A DNA stretch of 64,000 nt from a virus, in IMG/VR virus record IMGVR_UViG_3300035034_001216, positions 8,522 through 72,521 of that record. One strand, given 5' to 3'. The notes beneath the pieces are model-generated. The model worked only from the letters and a program-made list of their open reading frames with translations. It made no database searches and had not been told where the DNA came from. Position 1 is the stretch's first letter. Each line of letters starts with the position of its first letter. The position numbers and the translations under genes were made by a program. Positions 7,201-57,818 of the stretch are shown piece after piece.

Positions 7201-9600
7201 ATGGCTAAAGTAAATAGATATTTTCAACAAGCACAAGCTCCGTATATTTCACAGTATGCGGATTACAAGCTTCCATACGAAGCAGTACAGAATGCTGTCA
7301 TGCAACGTCAAGGAACGTTTGATAAGAATCAGGCTATGCTTGCTAATGCTGCTAATAAGTATGGACAGATTGCATCAAGAGGAGTGGACGCTGAAGGTAA
7401 AGCTAACGCAATAGATAAGTACTTAGGTGACGTAAACGAAACTGTTAATAACAAATACAACGGTGACTTCTCATTAGCTGCTGGCGATATCTTTGATAAG
7501 ACTGCTAGGTTTACTGCTGATCCTATGTGGGATAAAATGAGAAGTTCATTGGAAGATGAAAAGGCTTATAAAGCAATGCAAGATCAAGCTAAACTAAACG
7601 GCATAAGTGTATATGAAACATCTAATTTCTCAGGAGAAAAATCTATATTCGCAGAGGATGGTGGATATAATGATGTCAATTATGATTATATACCTGACAG
7701 TCCTGAAAGATATCAAGGTATATTAAAAGAATTCTTTAACGATTTTGATTCTAGTAAAACAACAGGGCTAAATGTTGATGCTTTAAATGAAGCCGCTAAA
7801 GGTGGTGAGAATGCATTTGTAGGATATTTAGATAGGGAATATAAAAAGTTTAATGATCCATACTTAAAAGGTGTTATGGAACAATACAAAAACTTAAACC
7901 CTCAAAAATATCAAATATACAAAGATCAAGATGCTCGTAATGGAACAAATTTAGCAGATGGAAAAGCAATTAGTGATATTTTAAGTGCGTCTAAAGAATT
8001 TGAATTTAATAGAATGACTGGTAAAGCTTTGCAAAATCCTACTGAACCGGAAGATACATTGAAGGACGACTTACCCCCTTTAGTTGAAATAGTTCCTATT
8101 GATTCAAATACTTCTACTATAATAGGACCTTCTAAAGAAAGTCAAGACGGTCATATAGATGAGCTATCAGAATGGAACGAAGGTAGAGATGCATCTATTA
8201 CTGCGAACGATAGTATAACTACTGCTGTATATGACGAGATTGATAACTTGGCAGCAAGTGCTCTTGAAGCAGAAGCAGTTCCCGGTCAACCTCATGTTAC
8301 AACTCATAACAAAAACTTTCAAAATGCATTAGTAGAAGAAGCCGAAGTTATTGTAGATGGTTTAATGCGTAGTTTAGAAACTAGACTAGAGTTTAAAGAT
8401 AAAAAAGGTAGAGATCTTGCTAGAGAGTTTATATTAAAAAGTTTAAATCCAAATAATGAAACAGATAAAGGATTTTGGACAGATGTTCAGCGAGACTTGG
8501 GAACGGCTTTTGACTTTGCAGTAGGTCCCACTGATATGCACAGGATTACAACCTTAGTTCAAAACGCAGCTGAAACTCAACAAGATAGGTTAAAAAAGTT
8601 AAAGGGTTATAATGGCAGTAAAGATGTTTATAAGAATTTAACAATGGCGTTAAATAGAATGACGGAAAACCCGGAACTGATAGGTGCTGAAAAATTGGAT
8701 TTGGGATTTGATCCATATGAAAGACCTATTGGTAAAAACCATGATATGGAACCCCAAACATATGAAGCTATAGAAAGACTAGATGATTATAGAAAAAATT
8801 ATCAAAATTATTATTTACCTGAGCTTCAAAAGAAAAGGAATGATATGAATAAAACAACAAGGCAAACAATAGTGCCTTCTTCATTATCTCCTGATTTCCA
8901 AAACACATTAAAACGTAGTGTTGCTTTATCTAATGCACGAGTATATGATTTCTTAAAAGATTCTGAGTTGTTTAGTAGAATTGATGATGACGGCAAGAAT
9001 GCTATTAGAAATAAGTATGATAAGAACAATATGACAATGGGTAATATTTTTGAATTTGGAACTATAGATCAAAATTATGGTACTGGTAATTATGAATTAT
9101 ACTTACCTATTCCCACTAAAGCAGACGGTACAAAACTTGCTGATATAGATGAGTTAGATGCTTATGATGGAAAAATTAGACTTATTCCTAATAAAGAGTT
9201 ACAAGGAAAGTTAAGGGAAGTCTTCGATGCAAATGGCGATAAATTTCAAAGGTATGATATTTCCGTAGCTAATAGAAAACGAATGGCAGCTTTACTACCA
9301 GAGGGTTCTGATTTAACAGTAGGTACTTACATGAGAGATGATGAGGGTGTAGACGCATTTGGCGGTAACAGAGTTTTAACTGTAAATAAACCTGATGGAG
9401 AACCTCTTACCTTTGAAGATGTAAATAATTTTGCATACCAACAAATAAGTCTTGGTGGAGAAATGAATCCTGATGTTGAAAGATTGCTTAAAAAAGCTAT
9501 TGATAGATTTGGTAAAGAAGAACTAAAAAATATACCTATAACTCCTGAATTGGTTGGAAGAATTAAACCATTATTAGACTACGCATATGGGAAATATTAA
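7201..9600 (+). CDS. putative virion cargo/ejection protein
   Basis: 799 aa with an N-terminal NRYFQ..QAPYISQY...LPYE segment, resembling the starts of crAss-like cargo proteins. Supported by synteny. Confidence 0.55.
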   Translation: MAKVNRYFQQAQAPYISQYADYKLPYEAVQNAVMQRQGTFDKNQAMLANAANKYGQIASRGVDAEGKANAIDKYLGDVNETVNNKYNGDFSLAAGDIFDKTARFTADPMWDKMRSSLEDEKAYKAMQDQAKLNGISVYETSNFSGEKSIFAEDGGYNDVNYDYIPDSPERYQGILKEFFNDFDSSKTTGLNVDALNEAAKGGENAFVGYLDREYKKFNDPYLKGVMEQYKNLNPQKYQIYKDQDARNGTNLADGKAISDILSASKEFEFNRMTGKALQNPTEPEDTLKDDLPPLVEIVPIDSNTSTIIGPSKESQDGHIDELSEWNEGRDASITANDSITTAVYDEIDNLAASALEAEAVPGQPHVTTHNKNFQNALVEEAEVIVDGLMRSLETRLEFKDKKGRDLAREFILKSLNPNNETDKGFWTDVQRDLGTAFDFAVGPTDMHRITTLVQNAAETQQDRLKKLKGYNGSKDVYKNLTMALNRMTENPELIGAEKLDLGFDPYERPIGKNHDMEPQTYEAIERLDDYRKNYQNYYLPELQKKRNDMNKTTRQTIVPSSLSPDFQNTLKRSVALSNARVYDFLKDSELFSRIDDDGKNAIRNKYDKNNMTMGNIFEFGTIDQNYGTGNYELYLPIPTKADGTKLADIDELDAYDGKIRLIPNKELQGKLREVFDANGDKFQRYDISVANRKRMAALLPEGSDLTVGTYMRDDEGVDAFGGNRVLTVNKPDGEPLTFEDVNNFAYQQISLGGEMNPDVERLLKKAIDRFGKEELKNIPITPELVGRIKPLLDYAYGKY

Positions 9601-53403: not shown

Positions 53404-54167
53404 TTATTTAATAGGGTTAACTATTTTTTCAACTTCATTGATATAATAATTATAATTGACATCATAATCTAAAAAATCAACTTGTTGAAAAAATTTATTA
53501 AAATAAGTAACAAGATATTTACTTTCTACTTCAAAAGATCTGTCATCTACAAATACACCATCAAATAGCGTATTCTCATATACAGATTCTTTCCCTTCAA
53601 GAGGTGGCATTTTCTTTATTAGTTTTTTACCATGATTAGAAATATAATACCTTACTGTTTTACTAGCTTTCTCTACTGTTTTATCAGAACTTAAAACATC
53701 TTTTAAAATGTAATGAGATCCTTTATTAGATTTAACTGCTTTACAAAAGTCATATATGTCGTCACATTCATAAATAGTCTTTTTATAGTCTATATTATGA
53801 ACGTAATAATCATATATTGCCTTTGCTACAATTATCATAGAATGATTCTTATGAGGCTCACGGTTATAATCATACCAACCTTTAAGTTTCACTCTATCGT
53901 CTACTTTTTCATTTCCAGTTTTGATTGCTAGGTAATTATTTACATTACTCATAACAAGTAAGTCATAAAACGTTTCTTCTAAAACAAATTTCGTTTTATT
54001 TTCCCATTGTCTTTGTAATGATCTAAATTCATCTAACCTTTCTTTACTAAATAGTACAACTACACCATCAGTATTAGCAGATAAAACAGAAAATCCTGAT
54101 ATATCAAGATCTTCTATAAGCATTAACAATGATAATTGACCAATAGTGGTCGTTTGGATTGTTACTA
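53404..54167 (-). CDS. polB: family B DNA polymerase, exon 2 (extends 38 nt upstream of the annotated TTG start)
   Basis: Frame is open back to (L)VTIQTTTIGQLSLLMLIE and contains motif C SANTDG, NVNNY and KLKG. An in-frame TAA lies directly upstream. Confidence 0.88.
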
Positions 54168-54200
54168 CTTACCACACTCAGTCACCTGAGCATAATAAAA

Positions 54201-54833
54201 TTACGTTAATTTATCAGCAACTGTTTCTCTGTTGAATATCCATATTTTAATGAAATTTCTACTGTTATTATTATAAGCAGGTTCTGTACATGTTTCGCAC
54301 ATTTCAGTAAGACATCCATCTAATATTGCCCATTCATTTGTCACACCTATCGGTTCATTTTTTGTACTTTGTCCGCCAGAAGTCATGTTGGTAGATACTA
54401 GAGTAAAAGCTGGACATTTTGTTAGTATCCTATCAAGAATCATATTTTGAAAAACCCATTTTATAAGTTTTTCTTCTATAAATTCTTTGTTATACAAAAC
54501 ACCTTTAAGTTCAGAAATCATATTAGGTATTAATGTCGCAGATGAGTATTTTAAAGATGGATTATCTCGAGTCCCTTTCAAAAATGAAACTATTCTGCGA
54601 GATTCTCCATAAGCTGAGTTGATACCTGACATTTGGAGAGCACCACATGATATGTCAGTGCCTCCTACTCCTAAATGTTTATTGCCTGAGTAATTTATTA
54701 GTTCTTTAATACGAGATAAAACTTCAGGATTATCTTTTAATGTCTCAGGCGTTAGCTTTGAACTTTTTTTTTCTTCTACTTTTAGTACTTTCAATTTGCT
54801 CATAATAAATTGTTTTTTTTGTTTTGATTTCAT
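54201..54833 (-). CDS. intron-nested hypothetical protein (P9 region; 210 aa from MKSKQ)
   Basis: Track ORF 54201-54905. Its upstream part overlaps P8/S, so the A-rich-preceded ATG at 54833 (or 54803) is preferred. No homing-endonuclease motif. Confidence 0.7.
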   Translation of the reverse strand: MKSKQKKQFIMSKLKVLKVEEKKSSKLTPETLKDNPEVLSRIKELINYSGNKHLGVGGTDISCGALQMSGINSAYGESRRIVSFLKGTRDNPSLKYSSATLIPNMISELKGVLYNKEFIEEKLIKWVFQNMILDRILTKCPAFTLVSTNMTSGGQSTKNEPIGVTNEWAILDGCLTEMCETCTEPAYNNNSRNFIKIWIFNRETVADKLT

Positions 54834-54864
54834 AATTTTATTATTTGTAGTCTGGACCATCTCA

Positions 54865-55176
54865 TCAACCGCATTCAATGTCACATGTAGGACTATTAAG
54901 TCCACATTTACATTTAATTTTAGGTTGCTCGTTGTTGGCCTCTACGCCGTTTTCTAATTTTTCACATAAACTAATAACTTCTTCATCATCACCATAAGCG
55001 CATAATGCTTCTAAAATTAATTTAATGTCTTTATTATCAAGTGACGGCACGGGATTGTCAAATTTTTTAAGTACTATTTTACAAAAGTCTACTTCAAATT
55101 GCTTTTGGAGATCTTCTTGAACTGCTTTTATATAATCAGGATTTTCATCTGATTGAAATTGTACTATAATTTTCAT
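54865..55176 (-). CDS. intron-nested 103-aa ORF overlapping the ribozyme core (L5 to P8)
   Basis: ATG after an A-rich leader. DNPVP is encoded by Q, GVEAN by R, and the stop TGA lies at the end of P8. C-terminal CKC...CDIEC. Confidence 0.55.
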   Translation of the reverse strand: MKIIVQFQSDENPDYIKAVQEDLQKQFEVDFCKIVLKKFDNPVPSLDNKDIKLILEALCAYGDDEEVISLCEKLENGVEANNEQPKIKCKCGLNSPTCDIECG

Positions 55177-55202
55177 ATTTTTTTTAAATTTGAGTTTCCC
55201 CG

Positions 55203-55375
55203 TTAGCTAATATTAAATTCTGTTAAATATTTACATTCTGATTTTTTACCACCACATTTAATTATCTCATATCTTTTTGATAATTTACAATTACATGATG
55301 GTGGTCCACAATGTGAACCGGGTATATAACTTCCATTACCACACCCATCATCATAATGTTTACATTTTTTTTCAT
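55203..55375 (-). CDS. intron-nested small ORF; the Cys-rich frame needs one extra A in the A8 run after the ATG
   Basis: ATG-A8-TGT. In frame it gives a ~37-aa peptide (MKKNVNIMMM...). The shifted frame gives KCKHYDDGCGNGSYIPGSHCGPPSCNCKLSKRYEIIKCGGKKSECKYLTEFNIS*. Confidence 0.35.
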
Positions 55376-55458
55376 AATTTTAATATTAACCCCTCTTTCG
55401 AGGATTCCGAGTTATTCGAAGTACATTACTGTACTAAGCCGCTAGTTTGACTTTATTA

Positions 55459-56247
55459 TTAAATCGTTTTAAGAATATTGTATATAGTTAAATAATTTCC
55501 TTCAACTAATGCTTCCATGATAGCTTTTTGTTTGACTTGAGGAACTCTGCAAGAAATAAGCCTTTTAACCTTCATATACGCCTGAAGAGTTCCATCTTGC
55601 ATCCTGATTTTAAACTCATTTTTTGATTTAAATAGTATTGGAAAATTAATAGTTGAGTCCAATCCATTTAACTTATCAAAAATGACCCCTGCATTATAAG
55701 TATCAGAATAAAAGGAAGGTCTATTCTTTTGATATAAGCTCAAAACCAAAGCATCATGAAACTCATATTTGTTTTTCATGTGATTTGTTAATGATTTCCA
55801 TACAGTATAAGGATTTCCATAAGATTTGTTAAACATCATTGCCTGTCTTATAAAAATAAACATAAAATGCATTTCCCATTTCTGACCTATCTTTGATTTT
55901 ATACCATAACCAATAGATGCAAGTTCAGTACCAAATTCATAATTTATTTTAACTTTCTCAAGACCTAAATACTCAGCGATCTTATAAAGATAAATCCGGT
56001 CATAGTTTTTAATATTTCCGGGAATAGTTAAAATAATATTTTTATGTGAAAGGAAAGATCTAAAAACACTTTGACATCCAGATTGAGTTCCGTTCTGTAG
56101 GTTATTAGATCTTATAATGTCATGATATTTAACGTTATTAGCTTTTTCAGCATTTATAACAGATATAATTCTGTTTAAATCATTAAGTTTTATTGCTAAA
56201 TTACTCGTGTTTGAAATAGATGGTAATTGAGTTTTATATACTTTCAT
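55459..56247 (-). CDS. intron-nested hypothetical protein (L1 loop; about 262 aa from MKVYK)
   Basis: Track ORF 55459-56334. The ATG at 56247 overlaps the end of the previous gene. No HNH, GIY-YIG or LAGLIDADG motif seen. Confidence 0.7.
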   Translation of the reverse strand: MKVYKTQLPSISNTSNLAIKLNDLNRIISVINAEKANNVKYHDIIRSNNLQNGTQSGCQSVFRSFLSHKNIILTIPGNIKNYDRIYLYKIAEYLGLEKVKINYEFGTELASIGYGIKSKIGQKWEMHFMFIFIRQAMMFNKSYGNPYTVWKSLTNHMKNKYEFHDALVLSLYQKNRPSFYSDTYNAGVIFDKLNGLDSTINFPILFKSKNEFKIRMQDGTLQAYMKVKRLISCRVPQVKQKAIMEALVEGNYLTIYNILKTI

Positions 56248-56677
56248 TTTCTTGTATTGTTTGGTAATAGCTTGGGTTATTTGAAAATTCGTCGTTTTGA
56301 AATCTTTGTACTTCTGTTCCTCTACCTTGAGCATAATAAAACATTTTTCTATTTGTTTGACTACACCAAGTATATCGCCATCCTCCTTCTTTCCCTACTA
56401 GAGAAAATAATGAACATACAACTTCTGTAAGAGTGGCTTTAGGATAATAATATTTAACTATCATATAAATGTCTCCTAAAGATCTACGCTTTTTTGCTAC
56501 ACAAAGCACATCTTTTGTTTTTACATGTATTGTTCCATGTTTTGTTGTTAATTCTTGTAAAAATGCTATAATAAAATCATATACAGGCATTTTCTTTGCT
56601 TCTTTCTTATAGAATCCTTGTAATCTTATAGGATCATAATCATTTAATATTCTTTCTTCAATTTTATCTAAAGTCAT
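56234..56677 (-). CDS. intron-nested hypothetical protein (L1 loop, 147 aa)
   Basis: Starts 12 nt after the 5' splice site. Contains RRSLGDIYMIVKYYYP and WCSQTNRKMF; no homing-endonuclease motif. Confidence 0.7.
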   Translation of the reverse strand: MTLDKIEERILNDYDPIRLQGFYKKEAKKMPVYDFIIAFLQELTTKHGTIHVKTKDVLCVAKKRRSLGDIYMIVKYYYPKATLTEVVCSLFSLVGKEGGWRYTWCSQTNRKMFYYAQGRGTEVQRFQNDEFSNNPSYYQTIQENESI

Positions 56678-56689
56678 TTGTTTTAGTTA

Positions 56690-57818
56690 ACGGATCATAC
56701 ATCCATGAATACTTATCATTAGTTTTTCCAAAGCCACCACCGTTAAGTGATAGCTTATAACCATCTGCTTTAATTTTATCGCCTTGTTTTTTAGCTTCTA
56801 CTCTGTCATTTGCCAGAGTTTCGTAGCCTCTTAGCCATTCATGACCGAGGTGTTGTGGGTATAGATTATTATTTATAATTCCGAACGGATACATAGAAGC
56901 AACATCAATCTCTACAAGATATTCATCTTTTTTAGCTTTTAAATACCTTGGCTTATCATGTGAATGAATACCACCATTTTTTAGATTAAAGAAATTATCT
57001 CCAATCTGTATCTTGTATGTAATTTGATTCTTTGTACCCTCTAACACTCTAGATCTAAAGTCTTTCAATACATTATTAAGATTGTCAGTTCTGAACTTTA
57101 CAAAGGCAGGTATACAATCTTCCATTCGTATTGTTTTCCTATAAGTTCTTAAATCTTTGAACTTATAGTAACTTTTACCAGAGTGCTTAGAATAGAATAG
57201 AGCGTTAATTTTAGCACCAATTGCTACATCAGACATATTCATAGCATTAAAGTTAAACTCTGCTCCTATATCCTTCCTAAGCTGTATTGCTTTAGTAGAA
57301 ATAGGATTCTCATAAAACTCTTTAGTTGCTACAACATCATTTCTGTTATAGTAAATGATTTCATCAAATTGATCAGATGATACATAAGAATGTGGATCTA
57401 AAGGAAGATCCATTATATTTTTCATTCTTAAATAAAACTCAATCCATTTTAATGATGTCATTCTTGCTTTGTTATTATAATGGTGTATTTTAAATAAATC
57501 AAGATGTGGAATTATTAATCTTTCCCATTCATTTTCATTATTTATAATACTTAGTGACTTTTTATACATATTTGATAATAAATCTTTACTGGATATATTA
57601 TCAAGGAATGCATTAATCATCGGACCATCATAGTTTAAGCAATTAAAACCTACTAATGCTTTAACTCTATTCATAAGAAACGACAGATACTCAGATCTAT
57701 CATCTCTATCCTTATGAATAATAAAATATACTTCTTCATTAGTTGTACTATTTATAAAGAAAGCTGAATGAAAGTTTGGAAATTGTTCCAAATCGTATAT
57801 CCATACTCCTTTGTCCAT
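56690..57818 (-). CDS. polB: family B DNA polymerase, exon 1 (unspliced frame runs on to a stop at 56664)
   Basis: 3'-5' exonuclease motifs YDLE, GFN..YD and YNRND; motif A DVASMYP; motif B KLSLNGGGFGK. Ends at YDP and lacks motif C. Confidence 0.9.

Follow-up and report, generated by a model that had tools for sequence, protein, structure and literature searches.

The window analyzed here is a stretch of 64,000 nucleotides (nt) from a virus (IMG/VR virus record IMGVR_UViG_3300035034_001216, positions 8,522 to 72,521). Positions without a locus label are those of the window, and all features described lie on its minus strand (Table 1). A gene for a PolB-type DNA polymerase is interrupted there by 2.5 kb that hold several further open reading frames (ORFs), and sequence comparison supports the interruption as a group I intron with several extra genes. 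An earlier sequence-only reading had proposed such an intron, with long-range stems that clamp each insertion, cover the start codons of the cargo genes and might act as a switch. The reading favored below, at a rough probability of 0.72, is a phage group I intron whose cargo blocks are each closed by a helix, together with an interplay between translation and splicing.

The exon junction was placed by joining U56690 to U54164, which restores the polymerase frame (...YSWMYDPL^TIQTTTIGQ..., where the caret marks the junction and TIQTTTIGQLSLLMLIE are the letters after it). The joined frame aligned without a gap at the junction with the intact enzymes of phages Panino and Sasha, and the parts of the polymerase corresponding to both exons are contiguous in intact relatives (Sasha). 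The predicted ligated-exon junction of the window RNA reads CCGU^UAACAAUCC. G54165 is the final intron base, with 7 nt between it and P9, and a terminal G together with a host frame restored by ligation is what a group I intron should show. At the 5' end, the splice-site U56690 pairs with G55442 in a P1 of 6 base pairs (bp), and the same P1/guide design was found in relatives as GGGU/GCCC, GCGU/GCGC and CCGU/GCGG.

The core helices were deduced for the window and compared among relatives of the intron, whose collection is described below. The P3-P7-P8 domain is present in the order P7, P3', P8, P7', and it covaries: P3 pairs in 11/11 relatives with both strands located (7 pair types; one member, L026, has no recognisable 5' strand), and P7 pairs in 18/18 (GACUA/UAGUC, n = 10; GACUG/CAGUC, n = 6; GGCCA/UGGUC, n = 2). 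P5 holds at least 5 anchored bp in 19/19 introns, with 14 distinct strand pairs and loops of 30 to 956 nt. P4 and P6 do not vary, as both lie in the motif used to gather the relatives. A guanosine-binding G-C pair beside a bulged A is expected in P7, after the Tetrahymena intron; the family pattern, GAG(G/A)C(C/U)(A/G) with (U/C)(G/A)GUCC, permits G-C, bulged A and G-C. With the P1/guide pairing, the terminal G, the gapless exon junction and covarying P3, P7 and P8 in relatives, the group I intron of the sequence-only reading was supported. On a compact relative (L015), the Rfam model RF00028 scored 45.0 bits (E 1.3e-10 for that short search), and its positions 27-253 aligned with P4, P5, P6, P7, P3', P8, J8/7 and P9 as deduced for the window. 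P7.1/P7.2 hairpins are absent, the first base of P8 abutting P3' in 18/18 members. As such hairpins between P3' and P8 mark subgroup IA (PMC3984707), the family does not belong to this subgroup, the usual type in phages. The ribozyme core amounts to ~300-400 nt, and the remainder of the intron consists of ORFs at five points, which take in the P1 loop (ORF147 and ORF291), the Px loop (the small ORF), the P5, P6 and P8 loops (parts of ORF103) and the P9 5' strand (ORF210).

Table 1. Window coordinates of the interrupted polymerase gene, the putative intron, its predicted helices and its cargo genes (a caret marks the splice site).
Feature	Position	Strand	Remarks
PolB-type DNA polymerase, exon 1	56690..57818	-	Last exon base U56690; phrog_1252 profile positions 52-425; junction aligned with intact polymerases
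P1 5' strand, CCGU^UA	56688..56693	-	Pairs with guide UAGCGG 55439-55444; U.G at the splice site
Group I intron, 2,525 nt	54165..56689	-	Last base G54165; exon junction, covariation in relatives, Rfam alignment of a relative
ORF147, first L1 cargo gene	56234..56677	-	Three homologues at 42-60% identity; more distant ones too
L1 closure, left arm	56646..56676	-	Stem i + 2 + 6 + 9 pairs; covers ORF147 AUG and first 10 codons (31 nt into ORF147)
Stem i (8 bp), UGACUUUA / UAAAGUCA	56676..56669 / 55455..55448	-	Left strand overlaps ORF147 AUG 56677-56675; right strand 3 nt before guide UAGCGG
ORF291 (262-aa form), second L1 cargo gene	55459..56247	-	
L1 closure, right arm	55448..55479	-	Covers last codons and stop of ORF291
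P2 hairpin, AGUACA-GUAA-UGUACU	55420..55435	-	Covarying stems in 12/12 relatives with 5' part located
P3 5' strand, CUCG	55408..55411	-	Pairs with CGAG 54928-54931
Extra hairpin between P3 and P4, CCUC-GAAA-GAGG	55392..55403	-	Covaries: CCUA/UAGG, CCCA/UGGG, UCUA/UAGA in relatives
Hairpin Px (stem ii)	55379..55391 / 55205..55217	-	Followed by J3/4 and P4
Stem ii as first proposed (9 bp), AAUAUUAAA / UUUAAUAUU	55387..55379 / 55217..55209	-	
Px-loop insert	55218..55378	-	37-codon AUG ORF and 57-codon Cys-rich frame
P4 5' strand, CGGGG	55198..55202	-	Pairs with UCCCG 55050-55054; J4/5, then P5
P5 5' strand, UCAAAUUU	55186..55193	-	Pairs with AAAUUUGA 55058-55065
ORF103	54865..55176	-	Starts in the P5 loop; runs through core helices
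P6, GCCGU/ACGGC	55044-55048 / 54946-54950	-	
P7, GGCCA / UGGUC	54936-54940 / 54855-54859	-	3' strand preceded by J8/7 AUGAGA
P8	54923-54927 / 54866-54870	-	First pair C-G, A-U or G-C among relatives
P9 5' strand, CUACA	54846..54850	-	Pairs with UGUGG 54172-54176; same layout in L017
Stem iii, AUAAUAAAAUUAUG / CGUAAUUUUAUUAU	54844..54831 / 54205..54192	-	14 pairs, one U.G
ORF210, cargo in the P9 5' strand	54201..54833	-	Homologues at P9 of L010, L013 and L019; at another site in L017
P9 tip, CUCAG-GUGA-CUGAG	54177-54190	-	
Polymerase, exon 2	53404..54164	-	phrog_1252 profile positions 438-651

Relatives were collected through an exact 23-nt core motif (55059-55037), whose first match was Cellulophaga phage phi14:2. 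The 23-mer was found in 17 IMG/VR loci and 18 metagenome loci (8 of these repeat loci already collected), giving about 25 related introns. They make up a previously undescribed intron family in aquatic phages, the hosts of which are probably Bacteroidota; a literature search found no description of the family or of the phi14:2 intron, with supplements outside the search, so that an earlier description is possible. Most relatives interrupt the Walker A motif of a DnaB-like helicase, and the exon junctions restored conserved motifs in every case checked. In phi14:2 (L010 4653-7266, KC821624.1), which is in culture and classified in Crassvirales, an unannotated 2.6-kb member splits the DnaB-like helicase at Walker A. 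Its junction restores ANSKVG^KSQ (predicted joined letters AAAGUGGGU^AAAUCACAAAUU), and gp036-gp039, annotated as hypothetical proteins, sit within the intron. The intron of L017 lies at a different PolB site, and the insertion site of the window is uninterrupted in that locus. A primase gene carries a family intron in L016 (490-540; also L022 and L037), with CCGU^UAACUAAAC UAGCGG. P1 and guide of L016 nearly match those of the window, and its L1 loop has only 7 nt and no insert; this near match suggests spread to sites with a few exon nucleotides in common. A more distant intron (L049 3880-4600) differs in its P4-P6 sequence, keeps the P2/P3 5' design, and shares the P9.1 CAGAAAUGA loop and the GUAACAAAAUG 3' end with the family. 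Protein-pattern searches (N-terminal part of PolB, ORF291) gave no close relatives, a search with the window-type P7 pattern found only L017, a scan of viral contigs for the ORF210 family found only L013, and the sole blastn match of the intron in phage records was a 48-nt exon stretch.

For the clamps, the letters were re-read, and all four proposed stems were present on the minus strand at the positions of Table 1; the four places are real insertion or closure points. Stem i had been proposed to close ~1.2 kb beside the guide, which it does as part of a closure longer than claimed: a two-strand flank fold gave 8 + 2 + 6 + 9 pairs following P1, between 56676-56646 and 55448-55479. Stem ii extends to 13 pairs, GGUUAAUAUUAAA (55391-55379) with UUUAAUAUUAGCU (55217-55205). 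The left arm of stem iii holds the AUG of ORF210 (54833-54831) and the right arm its stop codon UAA (54203-54201). Stems i and iii thus include a cargo AUG; stem ii ends 3 nt before the AUG at 55375, and in case iv the 5' strand of P5 ends 10 nt upstream of the AUG of ORF103 (55176). Pairing partners across the clamps are 187-1,244 nt apart. To compare the borders, the folding-energy gain of 60-nt border windows was calculated against 371 random window pairs from the same 64 kb. The gain was -20.5 kcal/mol for the L1 insert (1/371 random pairs as good), -13.6 kcal/mol for the P9 insert (2/371) and -9.7 kcal/mol for the Px insert (19/371). When all 2,581 nt were folded with a partition function, the mean pair probabilities were 0.97 (stem i), 0.91 (stem ii) and 0.53 (stem iii).

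Across the family, 17 insertions were set by conserved anchors (9 between P3 and P4, 7 in P9, and L1 of the window), and the clamp was measured as the longest contiguous helix, G.U allowed, between 45 nt of the left border and 60 nt of the right border. Helix lengths were 13, 13, 11, 11, 12, 13, 11, 8 and 15 for the P3-P4 insertions, 14, 13, 13, 11, 9, 7 and 14 for those in P9, and 9 for L1 of the window. At least 11 contiguous pairs were present in 13/17 insertions, against 162/3,000 (5.4%) random window pairs from the same loci (binomial tail 6e-14, which assumes an independence that is not fully true). With narrow windows (start -20 to +3, stop -10 to +15), at least 9 pairs were found in 9/15 blocks vs. 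4/94 ordinary genes of at least 100 codons. At the site after P9.1, 2/4 further inserts have border helices of at least 10 bp (12 and 10 bp). Copies of the ORF147 family within introns have border helices of 14 bp, perfect (L049), 15 bp (L053) and 9 bp (L014, weak), or the composite closure of the window, and in four free-standing copies (L047, L051, L052, L055) the value is 7-9 bp, in the random range. Two-gene blocks are enclosed in the L1 insert of the window and at site B of L017. Closure of the inserts by helices of their own is supported by these statistics and by the relatives.

The stems could instead be ordinary peripheral helices of the ribozyme, older than the cargo, with genes that landed in their terminal loops, start occlusion that is incidental, and no switch. 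This was judged unlikely, and it fits part of the material. In stem ii, the lower 9 pairs belong to a hairpin conserved in the ribozyme, to which the window adds 4 pairs; the Px hairpin occurs uninserted, with a 4- or 5-nt loop, in L030 (GGUUAAUAU-UAAA-AUAUUAGCU) and L011, and with other ORFs in L018, L014 and L025. In L034, P9 is extended by a long AU-rich stretch that holds no ORF, and P5 is a core helix. Other members do not fit: the insert of L015, L017 and L010 sits next to Px rather than in it, bounded by separate arms of 11-16 bp, and the uninserted L1 loop of L016 is short. In the window and in L017, the stem iii insert is in the 5' strand of P9 and not in a loop, between the fifth P9 pair and an intact GUGA-tipped hairpin that follows the right arm, which makes a three-way junction. 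The arms also extend into coding sequence and hold AUG and stop codons, and would therefore have been absent before the genes arrived.

The stem iii arms differ between these two loci (AUAAUAAAAUUAUG in the window, UAACAAUUAAUUA in L017), and near the base AUAAU/AUUAU in the window corresponds to AUAAC/GUUA in L017, a change from U-A to C-G on both sides. Compensatory change, which the sequence-only reading had named as a check, was thus seen once, in stem iii, whereas stem i had no relative to compare. Other members carry P9-loop inserts with unrelated arms of 9-14 bp. The proposal of the sequence-only reading that the stems were selected to loop out the cargo holds in so far as the closures exceed chance and recur at the same sites with different sequences; it does not extend to the base of stem ii, which predates the insert (L030, L011), to P5, or to ORF103, which is not looped out.

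Alternatively, the arms would be terminal inverted repeats of mobile gene cassettes, acting at the DNA level, with RNA pairing as a side effect. The same gene families are indeed found at different intron sites, and different families at the same site: ORF210 relatives occupy P9 in four loci and site B in L017, and ORF147 relatives in L1, after P9.1, within L049 and free-standing. The arms also abut start and stop codons. This reading is nevertheless very improbable. G.U pairs are present in 8/13 long clamps; they are mismatches on the other strand and in DNA, which argues for function at the RNA level only. In addition, the arms are not conserved among homologous cassettes, they enclose two-gene blocks, the free-standing copies have no such repeats, and the outer part of several arms is conserved ribozyme sequence.

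Chance complementarity in AU-rich sequence, with no function, had been conceded as a partial source of the stems. An 8- or 9-bp AU-rich helix by itself is not remarkable: at least 9 contiguous pairs (G.U allowed) were found in 26% of random 45 x 60 nt window pairs and at least 8 in 53%, stem i as first proposed has only 8 bp, and random pairs matched the Px energy gain 19 times. As a general explanation, chance is scarcely credible against the excess of helices of at least 11 bp (13/17 insertions vs. 5.4%) with arms at the insert borders, the rarity of random matches to the L1 and P9 closures, the lack of such stems in free-standing copies of the same family, and whole-RNA fold probabilities of 0.53-0.97. 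Almost no weight can be given to a polymerase made as two polypeptides with ordinary genes in the 2.5 kb between them: the N-terminal ORF does have a stop codon (56664-56666, 9 nt after the AUG of ORF147 and within the L1 closure), a TTG or ATG start is available downstream (54129), Rfam reports no intron in the window and most inner ORFs have homologues, but separate halves would lack the conserved TIQTTTIGQ segment, which contains no start codon and precedes every available one, all group I core helices are present and, P4 and P6 apart, covary in relatives interrupting a helicase, a primase and another PolB site, and exon junctions restore motifs, e.g., the Walker A motif ANSKVG^KS in phi14:2.

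Several points weigh against an intron with helix-closed cargo and translation/splicing interplay. No RNA sequencing run that holds the window stretch was found, and splicing and stems were inferred from sequence. Four lake-water DNA runs hold the stretch or parts of it, with zero differences, indels or joints, and thus offer no population-level covariation and no cargo-less allele. Neither the window, where inserts split the core, nor the whole 72.5-kb record had a group I match in Rfam, the window being searched at both gathering and E-value thresholds; L010 was likewise without a match, and the RF00028 score of L015 (45.0 bits) is under the curated cut-off of 50 bits. In the whole-RNA partition-function fold, pair probability was only 0.15 for P1 and 0.02 for P9. 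Stem i is without a comparative test, as no relative carries an L1 insert. Clamp window sizes and thresholds were fixed after data inspection. The exact-23-mer collection contains related members, and several clamps are of common ancestry (the Px base is identical in the window, L018, L014 and L030, and the P9 left flanks share AAUAUAAAU). Some clamps are weak: 7 bp at P9 of L016, 8 bp at site B of L019, 8 bp in L012, and that of L014. Finally, the nearest AUG overlaps the left arm in 7/17 insertions and is at most 6 nt from the arm in 12/17, and the stop codon is within the right arm in many; with so little spare sequence in the inserts, closure alone might bring the AUG under the stem, and this cover is inseparable from simple insert compaction.

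ORF103 differs from the looped-out cargo in that it crosses P5' (55058-55065), P4' (55050-55054), P6, J6/7, the 5' strand of P7, P3' and P8, and ends in conserved P8 3'/J8/7 sequence with stop codons in all three frames. Of 15 loci examined, 14 have a homologue, and in the remaining one, the compact L015, a form of 24 codons survives. Across the P6 loop, 12 distinct distances were counted (28 to 286 nt), and each equals 1 modulo 3, which indicates that the ORF103 frame is under selection. Ribosomes translating ORF103 pass through the catalytic core and must unfold it. The P8-loop-encoded parts of ORF103-type proteins are Cys-rich in many members.

The mechanism proposed for such introns can be put as follows. 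Each block is closed by a predicted helix between its first and last 10-30 nt, with the start codon in or next to the left arm and the stop codon in or next to the right arm; the closing helices rejoin separated ribozyme strands, so that P1, J3/4-P4 and P9 can form. By analogy with T4 td and I-TevI, transcription of the right arm and formation of the helix would block cargo initiation and allow the ribozyme to fold, and ribosomes on the cargo, above all on ORF103, would keep the core from folding. Ribosomes that enter the unspliced intron would presumably melt P1 together with the L1 clamp, with a possible restart on ORF147. The stop codon of exon 1, 9 nt past the AUG of ORF147 (56664-56677), makes termination-reinitiation coupling possible. 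On the T4 analogy, a switch between cargo synthesis and polymerase production is plausible. A bolder scheme, in our view doubtful, would treat these introns as a gene-cassette platform in which unrelated small genes are swapped among docking helices (the P1 loop, P3-P4 hairpins, P5, P9 and the region after P9.1), with the start-stop helix as a timer and the ORF103-type protein as one part of the control. Under this scheme, the cargo would be open to ribosomes only from the time the left arm is transcribed until the right arm is; once they terminate at the stop codon in the right arm, the helix would close and the ribozyme would then fold, releasing the mRNA of the polymerase, helicase or primase.

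The logic of keeping translation apart from splicing is already established for T4 I-TevI (PMC2988022, in the sections available), where a hairpin mutant splices poorly (PMC2988022 and PMC3984707, likewise). As in the T4 introns, ORFs here are mostly in peripheral loops and RNA structure hides the translation start; in T4 the I-TevI ORF extends with its 3' end into the core, splicing drops when the hairpin is lost, and the accepted rationale of the hairpin is that ribosomes are kept out of the folding ribozyme. The T4 hairpin is local, stands upstream of the ORF, hides the Shine-Dalgarno sequence and is bypassed by an intron-internal late promoter, whereas the stems of the present intron connect both ends of an insert across 0.2-1.2 kb, include AUG and stop codons, and restore a ribozyme helix. 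The pairings are long-range and no Shine-Dalgarno site is evident; the arrangement resembles the T4 device in how it would work but is a different one. Each T4 intron holds a single ORF, which encodes a known endonuclease; the present intron holds four or five, none matching an endonuclease family. The rule that ORFs of group I introns sit in peripheral loops is followed at L1, L5, L6, L8 and the Px loop, with ORF103 as a case of core overlap, and beyond the rule are the P9 5'-strand insert with its three-way junction, the P3-P4 hairpins and the ORF103 frame kept across the core.

Introns are likewise dense in PolB, primase and other core genes of Bacteroidota phages among crAss-like gut phages (Yutin et al., 2021, PMC7886860); going by the sections of that article available, those were found via endonuclease domains such as LAGLIDADG, which the present family is without. 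IStrons (group I intron plus insertion sequence; PMC3984707, in the sections available) also carry large foreign coding DNA harmlessly, with a transposase module at one end, whereas here several unrelated small genes lie at internal helices and no transposase was seen. The present element is set apart by the number of genes, their unrecognised families, the start-stop helix closing each insert and the conserved gene through the core. To our knowledge, descriptions of phage group I introns give them one gene at most, for a homing endonuclease. The family shows how a ribozyme may tolerate kilobases of foreign sequence, with inserts closed by their own helices, and its host genes in aquatic phages serve replication (polymerase, helicase, primase). 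Such introns escape annotation that relies on Rfam or on endonuclease domains, and the affected genes are then split wrongly in databases. In phi14:2, the genes within the intron stand in the annotation as independent hypothetical proteins; this phage is in culture, which opens the interplay of translation with splicing to tests at the bench.

The cargo proteins were searched for known families. ORF147 had no Pfam or PHROG family. ORF291 found only its own cluster among 5.8 billion proteins and had no tblastn match in phage records. The family of ORF210 comprises 443 clusters, only unnamed ones; no known domain was recognised in it, the best PDB sequence match had E 0.25, tblastn was without a match in phage records, and in Foldseek no PDB fold matched the AlphaFold2 (AF2) model (predicted local distance difference test, pLDDT, 75.4) at E <= 0.001, the weak rows beyond that being acetyltransferase-like. 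No Pfam or PHROG match to homing-endonuclease domains (LAGLIDADG, GIY-YIG, HNH, His-Cys box, PD-(D/E)xK) was obtained for the 4 window ORFs of at least 100 codons, and no endonuclease family was found among 9 cargo representatives from relatives and one host exon. In the Px insert, the 57-codon Cys-rich frame, which ends at the J3/4 UAA, meets the 37-codon ORF at an A8 run (55205-55378; 55363-55375). The split frame would be either a frameshifted pseudogene or a case of slippage, and the small ORF has possibly decayed; the four DNA runs are without a variant at the A8 run.

Some further observations concern the fold and the loci. One or two hairpins, a GAAA-tipped hairpin and Px, stand between the 5' strand of P3 and J3/4 (window 55379-55403, and relatives), which is unusual; we know of no peripheral elements at this place in other group I introns. 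An R element at GGUCCAGACUAC (54857-54846), with P3 formed from strands of stems ii and iii, was overturned by the relatives, and six matches to a 16-mer based on GGUCCAGACUAC (L003-L008) proved to be chance coding matches in which Rfam found nothing. The DNA polymerase of phi14:2 is annotated as gp029 and gp031 (L010 1137-3582), ~740 nt apart with a small ORF between them, and Rfam gave no intron match in that gap. In L052 (3986-4400), a free-standing ORF147 relative ends a few nt before the polymerase gene (...YDIE... motif), an arrangement that resembles a free-standing mobile gene beside its target. A 34-nt AU-rich stretch of the window (54812-54845) is shared with contigs of other organisms from two lake-water runs, with 4 differences and divergence beyond it.

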